DNA of 4,439 nt. Origin: a virus (lineage: Duplodnaviria > Heunggongvirae > Uroviricota > Caudoviricetes). The stretch lies in IMG/VR virus record IMGVR_UViG_2778261462_000001, one strand, 5' to 3'. Positions 1 to 4,439 of the stretch are shown here, piece by piece; the first letter of the stretch is position 1; each line of letters starts with the position of its first letter. The notes below the pieces were generated by a model. That model ran no database searches. It saw only the letters and a list, made by a program, of their open reading frames with translations, and was not told where the DNA came from. A program made the position numbers and the translations under genes.

Positions 1-127
1 GTTTAATTATATCGAATGTGATTACAATCGGTGGCGGCGGCACAGTTGGTGTGGCGGCCTCAGTCCGGAACAATTTGAAAACAAGAACCTCGCTTAGGCC
101 TGTGTCCATATTACGTGGGTAGGATCA
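1..127 (+). mobile_element. IS3-family insertion sequence, 3' (right) end; the element continues upstream of the window
   Basis: The sequence ends at 127 with ...GGCCTGTGTCCATATTACGTGGGTAGGATCA, i.e. the 5'-TG...CA-3' terminus typical of IS3-family elements. From memory this matches the right terminal inverted repeat of E. coli IS3. The preceding frame encodes a transposase-like C-terminus. The boundary at 127/128 is set by where that recalled repeat ends. Confidence 0.7.
2..97 (+). CDS. IS3-family transposase OrfB (InsF-like), C-terminal fragment; 5' part lies outside the window
   Basis: Frame 2 is open from the window edge to TAG at 95-97 and encodes ...[28 protein letters not shown]. The YN-x-RRHS...LSPEQF pattern is the conserved C-terminal tail of IS3-family DDE (rve) transposases. 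It is absent from the supplied ORF track only because it has no in-window start. Confidence 0.6.
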
Positions 128-176
128 TGGAGGCACCAGGCACTGCATCACAAAATTCATTGTTGAGGACGCGATA

Positions 177-365
177 ATGAAAACGTTATTACCAAACGTT
201 AATACGTCTGAAGGTTGTTTTGAAATTGGTGTCACTATCAGTAACCCAGTATTTACTGAAGATGCCATTAACAAGAGAAAACAAGAACGGGAGCTATTAA
301 ATAAAATATGCATTGTTTCAATGCTGGCTCGTTTACGTCTGATGCCAAAAGGATGTGCACAATGA
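177..365 (+). CDS. hypothetical small protein (62 aa), first gene of a two-gene small-ORF pair
   Basis: ATG at 177 is preceded by GAGGA (165-169) at 7 nt spacing. Its TGA stop (363-365) overlaps the ATG (362-364) of the next ORF as ATGA, a classic translational-coupling arrangement. I recognise no family for the product. Confidence 0.4.
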   Translation: MKTLLPNVNTSEGCFEIGVTISNPVFTEDAINKRKQERELLNKICIVSMLARLRLMPKGCAQ

Positions 366-553
366 ATTCAGCATTTGTGCTTGTTCTGACAGTTTTTCTT
401 GTTTCCGGAGAGCCAGTTGATATTGCAGTCAGTGTTTACAGGACAATGCAGGAGTGTATGACTGCAGCAACCGAACAGAAAATTCCCGGTAACTGTTACC
501 CGGTCGATAAAGTTATTCACCAGGATAATATCGAAATCCCGGCAGGTCTTTAA
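362..553 (+). CDS. hypothetical small protein (63 aa) with a hydrophobic N-terminal segment (signal-peptide or membrane-anchor-like)
   Basis: ATG at 362 is preceded by AAGGA (347-351). The product MNSAFVLVLTVFLVSGEPVD... opens with an uncharged hydrophobic stretch of about 14 residues followed by a polar region with two Cys. The ORF track extends the frame upstream to ATG 308 (81 aa), but 362 has the better ribosome-binding site and the ATGA overlap. Confidence 0.5.
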   Translation: MNSAFVLVLTVFLVSGEPVDIAVSVYRTMQECMTAATEQKIPGNCYPVDKVIHQDNIEIPAGL

Positions 554-645: not shown

Positions 646-3117
646 ATGAGTAAAGTCTTTATTTGCGCCGCTATTCCTGACGAACTGGCAACAAGGGAAG
701 AAGGCGCTGTGGCTGTAGCCACAGCCATTGAAGCTGGCGACGAACGCCGTGCTCGAGCAAAATTTCACTGGCAATTCCTGGAACATTATCCGGCTGCTCA
801 GGACTGCGCTTATAAATTTATTGTCTGCGAGGATAAACCTGGCATACCCCGCCCTGCCCTCGATTCATGGGATGCTGAATATATGCAGGAAAACCGCTGG
901 GATGAGGAGTCTGCTTCTTTTGTCCCGGTTGAGACTGAATCCGATCCGATGAACGTCACTTTTGACAAGCTGGCCCCTGAAGTACAGAACGCTGTCATGG
1001 TTAAGTTCGACACATGTGAAAACATCACCGTTGATATGGTTATTAGCGCACAGGAATTGTTGCAGGAAGACATGGCAACATTCGACGGACATATCGTTGA
1101 AGCGTTGATGAAAATGCCAGAAGTTAACGCCATGTATCCGGAGCTTAAGTTGCACGCCATTGGGTGGGTTAAGCATAAATGTATTCCTGGTGCTAAATGG
1201 CCCGAAATTCAGGCAGAGATGCGCATCTGGAAAAAACGTCGCGAAGGTGAACGCAAGGAAACCGGAAAATACACGTCTGTTGTTGATCTCGCCCGCGCCA
1301 GAGCCAATCAACAGTACACTGAAAATTCAACAGGAAAAATCAGCCCGGTCATTGCTGCCATTCATCGCGAATACAAGCAGACATGGAAAACACTGGATGA
1401 CGAACTGGCCTACGCTCTCTGGCCTAGTGATGTGGATGCCGGAAACATTGACGGCAGCATCCATCGCTGGGCAAAAAAAGAAGTTATCGACAACGACCGC
1501 GAAGACTGGAAGCGTATCTCGGCATCAATGCGCAAACAGCCTGATGCCCTTCGCTACGACCGCCAAACTATTTTTGGCCTTGTCCGTGAGCGTCCGATCG
1601 ACATTCACAAAGATCCCGTAGCACTGAACAAATATATCTGCGAATACCTGACGACAAAGGGCGTGTTTGAGAATGAAGAAACAGACCTGGGCACTGTTGA
1701 TGTTCTCCAGTCATCAGAAACACAAACTGATGCAGTGGAAACTGAGGTATCTGATATCCCAAAAAATGAAACCGCGCCGGAAGCTGAACCATCTGTAGAG
1801 CGTGAGGGGCCGTTCTATTTCCTCTTCGCAGATAAGGACGGAGAAAAATACGGTCGCGCAAACAAACTCTCTGGTCTGGATAAGGCACTGGCTGCTGGCG
1901 CCACTGAAATCACAAAAGAAGAATATTTTGCCCGAAAGAATGGCACATACACGGGCTTACCGCAAAATGTAGATACCGCTGAAGATTCAGAACAACCAGA
2001 GCCGATAAAAGTTACCGCTGACGAAGTAAACAAAATTATGCAGGCAGCCAATATCAGCCAGCCTGACGCCGATAAGTTGCTTGCTGCATCACGTGGTGAA
2101 TTTGTTGAAGGGATTAGTGACCCGAATGATCCGAAATGGGTTAAGGGGCTCCAGACCCGCGATTCTGTGAACCAGAACCAGCATGAATCGGAACGGAACT
2201 ACCAAAAAGCGGAACAAAACAGTCCAAATGCGTTACAAAACGAGCCAGAAACGAAACAGCCTGAACCAGTAGCGCAACAGGAAGTGGAAAAAGTCTGCAC
2301 CGCCTGCGGTCAGACCGGCGGCGGCAACTGCCCTGATTGTGGCGCGGTGATGGGCGACGCAACATACCAAGAAACATTCGATGAAGAGTATCAGGTTGAA
2401 GTTCAGGAAGATGATCCGGAGGAAATGGAAGGCGCTGAACATCCACACAAGGAGAACACTGGCGGCAATCAGCATCACAATAGCGATAATGAAACTGGCG
2501 AGACGGCAGATCACCCAATTAAGGTGAACGGTCATCACGAAATCACATCCACCAGCAGGACGTGTGACCATCTAATGATCGACCTTGAAACCATGGGAAA
2601 AAATCCTGATGCCCCGATCATCTCAATAGGTGCAATATTTTTCGATCCGCAAACCGGAGATATGGGACCGGAATTTAGTAAGACTATCGATCTGGAAACT
2701 GCTGGCGGAGTCATTGATCGGGACACCATTAAATGGTGGCTTAAGCAATCACGCGAAGCGCAATCTGCCATTATGACCGATGAAATCCCGTTAGATGATG
2801 CACTGTTACAATTGCGAGAATTTATCGACGAAAACTCCGGTGAATTTTTTGTTCAGGTTTGGGGAAATGGAGCCAACTTCGACAACACGATTTTGCGCCG
2901 TTCATACGAACGGCAGGGGATCCCCTGCCCGTGGCGTTACTACAACGATCGCGATGTACGCACAATCGTTGAGCTGGGGAAAGCCATAGACTTCGATGCC
3001 AGAACGGCTATTCCATTCGAAGGTGAGCGCCATAATGCACTTGATGACGCCCGTTACCAGGCAAAATACGTTTCAGTTATCTGGCAAAAACTGATCCCGA
3101 GTCAGGCTGATTCTTAA
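646..3117 (+). CDS. large prophage-encoded modular protein with C-terminal DEDDh (DnaQ-like) 3'-5' exonuclease domain; N-terminal domain of unknown function; putative prophage exonuclease
   Basis: Single long ORF (track: 610-3117 with a TTG start). I prefer ATG 646 (MSKVF...), which has GAGG at 633-636 about 9 nt upstream; ATG 631 is an alternative. The C-terminal region carries the three DEDDh motifs: Exo I D-L-E in MIDLETMG (D 2581-2583, E 2587-2589), Exo II in WGNGANFDNTIL (D 2881-2883), Exo III H-x4-D in HNALDDARYQ (H 3031-3033, D 3046-3048). Its position immediately upstream of xis-int matches the exo slot of lambdoid pL operons. Confidence 0.85.
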   Translation: MSKVFICAAIPDELATREEGAVAVATAIEAGDERRARAKFHWQFLEHYPAAQDCAYKFIVCEDKPGIPRPALDSWDAEYMQENRWDEESASFVPVETESDPMNVTFDKLAPEVQNAVMVKFDTCENITVDMVISAQELLQEDMATFDGHIVEALMKMPEVNAMYPELKLHAIGWVKHKCIPGAKWPEIQAEMRIWKKRREGERKETGKYTSVVDLARARANQQYTENSTGKISPVIAAIHREYKQTWKTLDDELAYALWPSDVDAGNIDGSIHRWAKKEVIDNDREDWKRISASMRKQPDALRYDRQTIFGLVRERPIDIHKDPVALNKYICEYLTTKGVFENEETDLGTVDVLQSSETQTDAVETEVSDIPKNETAPEAEPSVEREGPFYFLFADKDGEKYGRANKLSGLDKALAAGATEITKEEYFARKNGTYTGLPQNVDTAEDSEQPEPIKVTADEVNKIMQAANISQPDADKLLAASRGEFVEGISDPNDPKWVKGLQTRDSVNQNQHESERNYQKAEQNSPNALQNEPETKQPEPVAQQEVEKVCTACGQTGGGNCPDCGAVMGDATYQETFDEEYQVEVQEDDPEEMEGAEHPHKENTGGNQHHNSDNETGETADHPIKVNGHHEITSTSRTCDHLMIDLETMGKNPDAPIISIGAIFFDPQTGDMGPEFSKTIDLETAGGVIDRDTIKWWLKQSREAQSAIMTDEIPLDDALLQLREFIDENSGEFFVQVWGNGANFDNTILRRSYERQGIPCPWRYYNDRDVRTIVELGKAIDFDARTAIPFEGERHNALDDARYQAKYVSVIWQKLIPSQADS

Positions 3118-3460: not shown

Positions 3461-4312
3461 ATGAGAGAAGTTGAAATGAAATATCCGACAGGCGTGGAAA
3501 ACCATGGAGGGAAATTACGTATCTGGTTTGTTTATAAAGACGTAAGAGTCAGGGAAAATCTGGGGGTTCCTGACACAGCAAAAAACAGGCGCGTTGCAGG
3601 TGAACTACGCTCCTCTGTTTGTTACGCAATAAAAACTGGTGTTTTCGACTATGCAAAACAGTTTCCCTCCTCACGCAATCTGGAAAAATTTGGTGAGGCC
3701 CGACAAGATTTAACCATAAAAGAACTGGCTGAAAAATTTCTGGCACTGAAAGAAACTGAAGTCGCCAAAACATCACTCAACACATACCGTGCCGTCATCA
3801 AAAATATCCTGAGCATAATCGGTGAAAAAAATCTTGCCTCATCGATTAATAAAGAAAAATTACTGGAGGTTCGTAAAGAGTTACTGACTGGATACCAGAT
3901 CCCCAAAAGTAACTATATTGTTACACAACCAGGGAGATCGGCTGTAACTGTAAATAATTACATGACAAATCTTAACGCCGTGTTCCAGTTTGGTGTTGAT
4001 AACGGTTACCTGGCAGATAATCCGTTTAAGGGGATCTCGCCATTAAAGGAATCAAGAACCATTCCGGATCCTCTTTCGCGGGAAGAATTTATCCGTCTTA
4101 TCGATGCGTGCAGAAATCAGCAAGCAAAAAATTTATGGTGTGTTTCTGTTTATACTGGAGTTCGCCCTGGTGAGCTGTGTGCACTTGGATGGGAGGACAT
4201 AGATCTGAAAAATGGAACAATGATGATCAGGAGAAATTTAGCAAAAGACCGTTTCACGGTACCAAAAACACAGGCGGGAACCAATCGGGTCATTCATCTT
4301 ATTAAGCCAGCA
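3461..4312 (+). pseudogene. phage tyrosine integrase (IntE/IntR-like, with N-terminal arm-binding domain), 3'-truncated by IS1 insertion
   Basis: The N-terminus MKYPTGVENHGGKLRIWFVYKDVRVRENLG matches, from memory, the PTGVE...LRIWF arm-binding motif of e14/Rac-type integrases (more likely start ATG 3476). Catalytic box I is present (TGVRPGEL, then KTQAGTNRVIHL), but the downstream H-x-x-R box and the catalytic Tyr are missing. The reading frame runs into IS1 at 4313, and the ORF-track tail [26 protein letters not shown] is translated IS1 DNA. Confidence 0.85.
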
Positions 4313-4439
4313 GGTAATGACTCCAACTTATTGATAGTGTTTTATGTTCAGATAATGCCCGATGACTTTGTCATGCAGCTCCACCGATTTTGAGAACGAC
4401 AGCGACTTCCGTCCCAGCCGTGCCAGGTGCTGCCTCAGA
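4313..4439 (-). mobile_element. IS1 insertion sequence, terminal 127 bp (insB-proximal end); the element continues beyond the window
   Basis: 4313 onward reads GGTAATGACTCCAACTTATTGATAGTG..., which I recognise as the IS1 terminal inverted repeat, followed by the complement of the insB 3' end. The junction at 4312/4313 lies inside the integrase frame. Confidence 0.9.
4328..4439 (-). CDS. insB: IS1 transposase InsB, C-terminal fragment (3' end of gene; rest outside window)
   Basis: The reverse complement of 4328-4439 translates to ...[36 protein letters not shown] followed by a stop (TAA, complement of 4328-4330). This matches the InsB C-terminus as I remember it. Confidence 0.8.

Follow-up and report, generated by a model that had tools for sequence, protein, structure and literature searches.

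The window, i.e. the whole stretch of 4439 bases that was analysed here, represents the entire contig NNVF01000126.1 of the draft assembly GCA_002485555.1 and is composed of a unique stretch of 4185 nt that is flanked by 127 nt of an IS3 element on the left and by 127 nt of an IS1 element on the right (Table 1). The unique part carries dicB, ydfD, a gene for a large YdfE-type exonuclease, an excisionase gene (xis) and the 5' portion of an integrase gene (int) in the order that characterizes Qin-type lambdoid prophages. The same order of dicB, ydfD, the ydfE exonuclease, xis and int was found at more than 99% identity in thousands of E. coli chromosomes. In all intact relatives that we examined, the integrase comprises 426 amino acids (1281 nt), with rspB and rspA behind it; the window stops before this point. 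We identify the window as the integrase end of a Qin-type defective lambdoid prophage of E. coli. No RNA family was detected in the window by an Rfam scan.

The genes directly upstream of the integrase gene are well preserved. An initial reading of the letters alone, here called the sequence-only reading, had described the excisionase-like gene and the large exonuclease as intact, and this description agrees with our comparisons: the excisionase region shows zero nucleotide differences to locus L005, which also holds our reference for the intact integrase gene, and the collection lists an entry that is residue-for-residue identical to the exonuclease protein of 823 amino acids in 6079 blocks.

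The left edge of the window was not commented on in that reading, although both edges of the window are formed by IS elements, IS3 on the left and IS1 on the right. The stretch of locus L016 to which the first 127 nt are identical is the terminus of an annotated IS3, and both the terminal sequence and the transposase 3' end of this element are present in the window. When the same 127 positions were compared with L005 at the same offset, 94 of them were mismatched, i.e. the sequences are unrelated. The junction of IS3 and prophage lies 49 nt upstream of the start codon of dicB and approximately 126 nt downstream of the position that DicF takes in intact relatives (L005:9306-9357). The IS3 end stands between the genes dicB, ydfD, exonuclease, xis and truncated int on one side and dicF with the operon promoter further upstream on the other; a polar effect on the former genes may result. 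The left IS3 junction occurred in none of the 5426 complete E. coli genomes.

Table 1. Features of the window and copies of insertion sequences at the same locus in other genomes. Positions without a locus prefix refer to the window; nt numbers in the lower part refer to the intact integrase gene and its continuation.
Feature	Position	Strand	Evidence and remarks
IS3 right end, exactly 127 nt	1-127	+	Last 32 transposase codons and terminal repeat ending ...GGATCA; window 1-128 100% identical to L016:8567-8694
dicB	177-365	+	Pfam DicB, E 1.9e-40; annotation in relatives; marks the Qin-type locus
ydfD	362-553	+	Pfam DUF1482, E 1.3e-26; annotation in relatives; marks the Qin-type locus
YdfE-type protein, 823 aa, with C-terminal 3'-5' exonuclease (Rv2179c-like) domain	646-3117	+	Pfam PF16473, E 2.4e-67
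Excisionase-family gene, DUF1233, 83 aa	3190-3441	+	Pfam PF06806, E 1.6e-31; relatives annotated as excisionase family protein
Longest fused ORF, integrase codons plus IS1-encoded tail	3461-4393	+	310 aa from ATG 3461; 305 aa from ATG 3476
Qin-type tyrosine integrase (intQ-like), 5' 837 nt, codons 1-279	3476-4312	+	837/837 identical to L005:12831-13667
AAGCCAGCA, predicted 9-bp target duplication if IS1 was simply inserted	4304-4312		Prediction; other IS1 copies at the locus have 8 or 9 bp
IS1 right end, cut by the contig end after exactly 127 nt	4313-4439	-	All 127 nt match nt 1-127 of the IS1 (768 bp) in L004
IS1-derived tail of the fused ORF	4313-4393	+	26 sense codons and TGA stop at 4391-4393, 81 nt
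L015 (GCA_949767355.1), divergent IS1 after int nt 852	L015:5370-6136		8-bp duplication CTCTCCGG; gene resumes
L017 (E. coli YSP8-1), first copy, IS1 after int nt 660	L017:1671-2438		8-bp duplication; gene resumes
L017 (E. coli YSP8-1), second copy, IS1 after nt 1192	L017:2979-3746		Far flank from nt 1393; int nt 1193-1392 (200 bp) and with them the gene's 3' end missing
L004, IS1 beyond the 3' end of the gene (after nt 1391)			9-bp duplication
L018, IS1 beyond the 3' end of the gene (after nt 1445)			9-bp duplication
L016 and further genomes, IS3 after nt 1086			3-nt overlap of the flanks (1084-1086)

The integrase gene is interrupted at an IS1 end

The integrase sequence of the window matches nt 1-837 of the reference gene (L005:12831-14111, 1281 nt, 426 amino acids) without any mismatch. 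After ...AAGCCAGCA the intact gene runs on with ATCGACGCT, whereas the window instead runs on with GGTAATGACTCCAACTTATTGAT. In a four-way alignment, the sequences are shared up to ...ATTAAGCCAGCA and are then followed by ATCGACGCT in the intact gene versus GGTAATGACTCCAACTTATTGATAG... in the window, and beyond this point every base of the window aligns with the termini of IS1 copies from two unrelated sites (L001 and L004). The junction between int and IS1, which lies between positions 4312 and 4313, is exact and unambiguous. Hence, the earlier statement that the integrase frame is intact up to 4312 and that IS1 begins at 4313 could be fully corroborated by the matches to the intact gene and to IS1 over every available position (837 and 127 nt, respectively).

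The identity of the element is equally clear. The terminal inverted repeat of IS1 of about 23 bp, GGTAATGACTCCAACTTATTGAT, is present at positions 4313-4335 and identical to that of the copies in L004 and L001. The last 36 codons and the stop codon of the IS1 transposase can be translated from the minus strand at 4328-4438, in agreement with the inward-reading insA/insB' transposase of IS1 elements and with an insB 3' end that lies 16 nt short of the right terminus; the annotated transposase CDS in L004 likewise ends at IS1 position 16. A perfect match to IS1 over 127 nt is not a chance event.

Two details of the fused reading frame need to be corrected. The sequence-only reading assigned its last 27 codons to IS1, a number that is right if the stop codon is counted, while the sense codons amount to 26. 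Furthermore, it placed the start of the integrase at 3461. Public annotation uses two in-frame ATGs, which result in entries of 431 (MREVEMKY...) and 426 (MKY...) amino acids; the 426-residue form is the commoner one among the loci inspected, and most annotated relatives start at the equivalent of 3476 (MKY). This position is the likelier start codon.

Catalytic residues missing from the truncated product

The conserved residues of the integrase were mapped by a HMMER alignment to the integrase of Tn1549 (PDB 6emy), combined with motif positions and Pfam coverage. The alignment of the intact relative to Tn1549 Int spans residues 151-399 and includes the conserved R, K, R, H and Y. In the intact integrase these correspond to R230 (in TGVRPGE), K264 (in PKTQ), R359 in the box Y356-Q-S-R359, H382 (in MGH) and Y392 (in QVYGK). 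With the truncation at residue 279, R230 and K264 are kept, while Y356-x-x-R359, H382 and the nucleophile Y392 are gone. The sequence-only reading had claimed that the H-x-x-R and Tyr region was removed. In substance this applies, since the arginine of the box, the second histidine and the catalytic tyrosine are lost; the box itself, however, does not read H-x-x-R. Y356-Q-S-R359 aligns to H-A-M-R of Tn1549 Int, i.e. the first histidine of the box is a tyrosine in this integrase lineage.

The domain composition leads to the same picture. The Phage_integrase domain (PF00589) is covered at positions 4-70 of 172 in the window compared to 4-165 of 172 in the intact protein, and a complete PF00589 catalytic domain with the residues R-K-(H)xxR-H/W-Y does not exist in the window copy. 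The N-terminal half, in contrast to the catalytic part, shows the architecture of lambda-type integrases with an arm-type and a SAM-like core-binding domain: the Arm-DNA-binding domain PF12167 (E 2e-22) is present at residues 4-67, and PF13102 (SAM-like) matches residues 83-185 with 21.6 bits, slightly under its gathering cut-off of 22.3 bits, as is also the case for both SAM-like Pfam matches in the intact protein. Judged from its residues and domains, the window copy is a gene fragment of a member of the tyrosine recombinase family and not a functional member.

A protein without these residues cannot cleave DNA according to the chemistry of tyrosine recombinases. Because R359, H382 and the nucleophile Y392 are removed, the gene would not give rise to an active recombinase, and the loss of self-excision that the sequence-only reading stated can be inferred from the missing nucleophile.

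Insertion sequences at the same locus in other genomes

The integrase gene and its immediate surroundings have been hit repeatedly by IS elements in E. coli (Table 1). In addition, 341 of the 3051 complete genomes with the integrase gene lack 80% of the gene in one place. The IS1 in L015, which has a length of 767 bp and is 91% identical to the copy in L004 over 768 aligned positions, is followed by the remainder of the gene behind a short duplication. This also applies to the first copy in E. coli YSP8-1, whereas the second copy of the same strain looks like an IS1-associated deletion. Besides IS1, the integrase gene of L015 holds a second insertion of the IS3 family near its 3' end, after ...VYGKWM. 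In one further relative (L012:12867-15482), three genes (for an IS66 transposase, TnpB_IS66 and an HTH_Tnp_1 protein), which according to Pfam belong to an IS66-family element, separate xis from int, the latter being otherwise intact.

All eight IS1 copies that we saw in or near this end of the prophage (in L001, L002, L004, L015, L017, L018 and the window) point the same way, and their transposase runs against int. We rejected this as evidence for an orientation bias at the locus, since the loci were found via same-strand joining and fused ORFs, both of which select for this orientation. The shared orientation may be an ascertainment effect.

The specific junction of the window was searched for in several collections. 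When window positions 4190-4439 were compared by BLAST with 5426 complete E. coli genomes, no single-piece match was obtained; three matches with full coverage (H31-H33) carry IS1 at other positions. Exact 43-mer scans for the junction of int and IS1 yielded 0 matches in the GTDB representative genomes, the JGI metagenomes and IMG/VR. The far junction that is predicted for a simple insertion (IS1 left end, 0-14 nt, int from nt 838 onward) also had 0 matches in genome and metagenome contigs. The integrase remnant of 140 amino acids (MTLTRL...KN) predicted from the sequence is identical to P0064, which is present on 216 contigs of the protein collection.

How the integrase gene may have been interrupted

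The best explanation of these results, which we regard as highly probable, is that an IS1 at nt 837 truncates a Qin-type integrase, that the active site was lost and that the prophage was fixed thereby. An IS1, which is a common mobile element, borders directly on nt 837 of the integrase gene (1281 nt), and its transposase is encoded by the other strand. Translation continues into IS1 for 26 codons and stops. The predicted product keeps the arm- and core-binding domains together with R230 and K264 and, without R359, H382 and Y392, should neither cleave nor rejoin DNA. Because the product could not carry out these reactions, the prophage remnant would stay at its site as long as no compatible integrase is provided in trans.

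This explanation depends on the join being real. The junction between int and IS1 is known from a single draft assembly and was found nowhere else in the collections searched, which could be taken to mean that the contig end is chimeric and that the genome itself carries an uninterrupted integrase. Such an artefact is very improbable, considering how the contig ends. Since both IS ends have the identical length of 127 nt, we infer that the contig stems from a de Bruijn short-read assembly with k=127 that was broken at repeats. Within IS1, the contig extends without a branch over exactly one k-mer length (127 nt), as it would for reads across a true junction of unique and repeated sequence, and an uninterrupted allele among the reads would have made a branch at 4312. 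Moreover, the join lies at the terminal nucleotide of IS1, which random chimeras would not respect. In view of the missing branch and the exact position of the join, reads probably support the junction. Even less credit can be given to the assumption that the integrase is naturally short, or represents a shorter paralogue, with an IS1 just downstream of a complete gene. It can refer to an open frame with a stop codon and to nothing more, whereas the 837 nt are identical to genes that extend 444 nt further, the catalytic domain reaches only position 70 of 172 instead of 165 as in the intact protein, and the last 26 codons belong to IS1. We rejected natural shortness on account of the identity to longer genes, the partial Pfam domain and the IS1 tail. 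The earlier claim of a truncation is thus upheld, since the intact relatives have 426 amino acids and, in the window, codon 280 and all later integrase codons have given way to IS1 sequence.

The question of how IS1 arrived at this position deserves more discussion. A simple transposition with a 9-bp duplication of AAGCCAGCA, as assumed in the sequence-only reading, is most likely in our analysis because of the IS precedents at the same locus. It makes clear predictions for the far side, where the left end of IS1 ...GGCAGCATCACC should be followed by the repeat AAGCCAGCA and by int from nt 838 onward, ATCGACGCTCTCCGG...; furthermore, an IS1 end ...CAGTAAGTTGGCAGCATCACC followed by AAGCCAGCAATCGACGCTCTCCGG and then by rspB would be expected. 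Alternatively, the junction might result from an IS1-associated deletion, inversion or other rearrangement, so that the DNA beyond IS1 would not be the rest of the integrase. IS1 is well known to promote adjacent deletions, and either such a deletion or the recombination of two IS1 copies could have led to the loss or relocation of the 3' part of int, perhaps with the attR side. The gene would be truncated just the same, and the end of the prophage would be more than interrupted. We consider a rearrangement less likely, yet a serious alternative that has precedent: in L017 an IS1 after int nt 1192 has its far flank from nt 1393, which equals a deletion of 200 bp, and the unique segment of 4185 bp between the ends of IS3 and IS1 suggests an IS-rich strain. 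On the other hand, four of the five other IS1 copies in or just after the gene are clean insertions with duplications of 8-9 bp (L015, the first copy in L017, L004 and L018), and nothing in the window is specific to a deletion. There is also a small chance that the whole block of 4185 bp was relocated or inverted from the Qin site by IS-mediated recombination, or that the fragment of 279 residues has been kept as a DNA-binding, dominant-negative protein that acts against excision by a related integrase provided in trans.

Meaning for annotation and for the fate of the prophage

The annotation should be changed from an 'integrase' of 305 or 310 amino acids to an IS1-disrupted integrase pseudogene, and the prophage should be listed as a remnant that is fixed, or 'grounded'. 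The inactivation of intQ is already known, as are IS1 and the integrase family, and the case represents an ordinary route by which old prophages get locked in the chromosome. The particular IS1 insertion allele appears to be unrecorded in the collections searched. Across E. coli, this gene has been inactivated time and again, by IS1 at several positions, by IS3 and by the 5' truncation in K-12, and the allele adds one more independent IS event. The allele could be used as a lineage marker, because it is absent from the 5426 complete E. coli genomes. Beyond annotation, however, its significance is little.

Comparison with known elements and prophages

The element at the right edge corresponds to IS1 (IS1 family, 768 bp); over all 127 nt available, which comprise the terminal inverted repeat and the transposase 3' end, the two are identical. 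A complete IS1 has two inverted repeats, whereas the window holds one end only. A close counterpart of the arrangement is the integrase gene of L015, in which IS1 has the same orientation, lies 15 bp downstream of the window site and generates an analogous fused ORF of 310 amino acids. Nevertheless, the two represent independent events; the IS1 of L015 is divergent, and both of its flanks are visible. Among the tyrosine recombinases of the phage-integrase family, Tn1549 Int (6emy) shares R, K, R, H and Y with the intact Qin-type relative, which possesses Arm-binding, SAM-like and catalytic domains. The window copy differs from Tn1549 Int in that it ends at residue 279 and thereby is devoid of three conserved residues including the nucleophile.

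A further comparison is the one with the cryptic prophage Qin of E. coli K-12. In genomes of the K-12 lineage, the match to the intact integrase gene is confined to nt 122-1281; on the K-12 map, intQ is without its 5' end and the exonuclease gene is fragmented. The intQ pseudogene of K-12 belongs to the same gene family and to the same locus type as the integrase of the window, with dicB, ydfD, ydfE and, further on, int beside rspB. In both cases, the integrase is disabled by a lesion that is associated with a mobile element, and the prophage would be fixed. The lesions themselves differ, because the window retains the 5' 837 nt of the integrase gene, xis and the full exonuclease of 823 amino acids, and is hit by IS1 at codon 279. 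Excision of Qin was undetected in K-12, which was ascribed to the inactive intQ (Wang et al., 2010; PMC3105296), and the loss of excision that we predict for the prophage of the window fits this published absence. Multiple intQ mutations have been reported in most Qin prophages, and the inactivation of the integrase was proposed as the cause of their 'grounding' (Ramisetty and Sudhakari, 2019; PMC6379469). The repeated inactivation of intQ, to which the IS1 lesion of the window can be added, is consistent with the published view that the loss of intQ made Qin a permanent resident of the chromosome.
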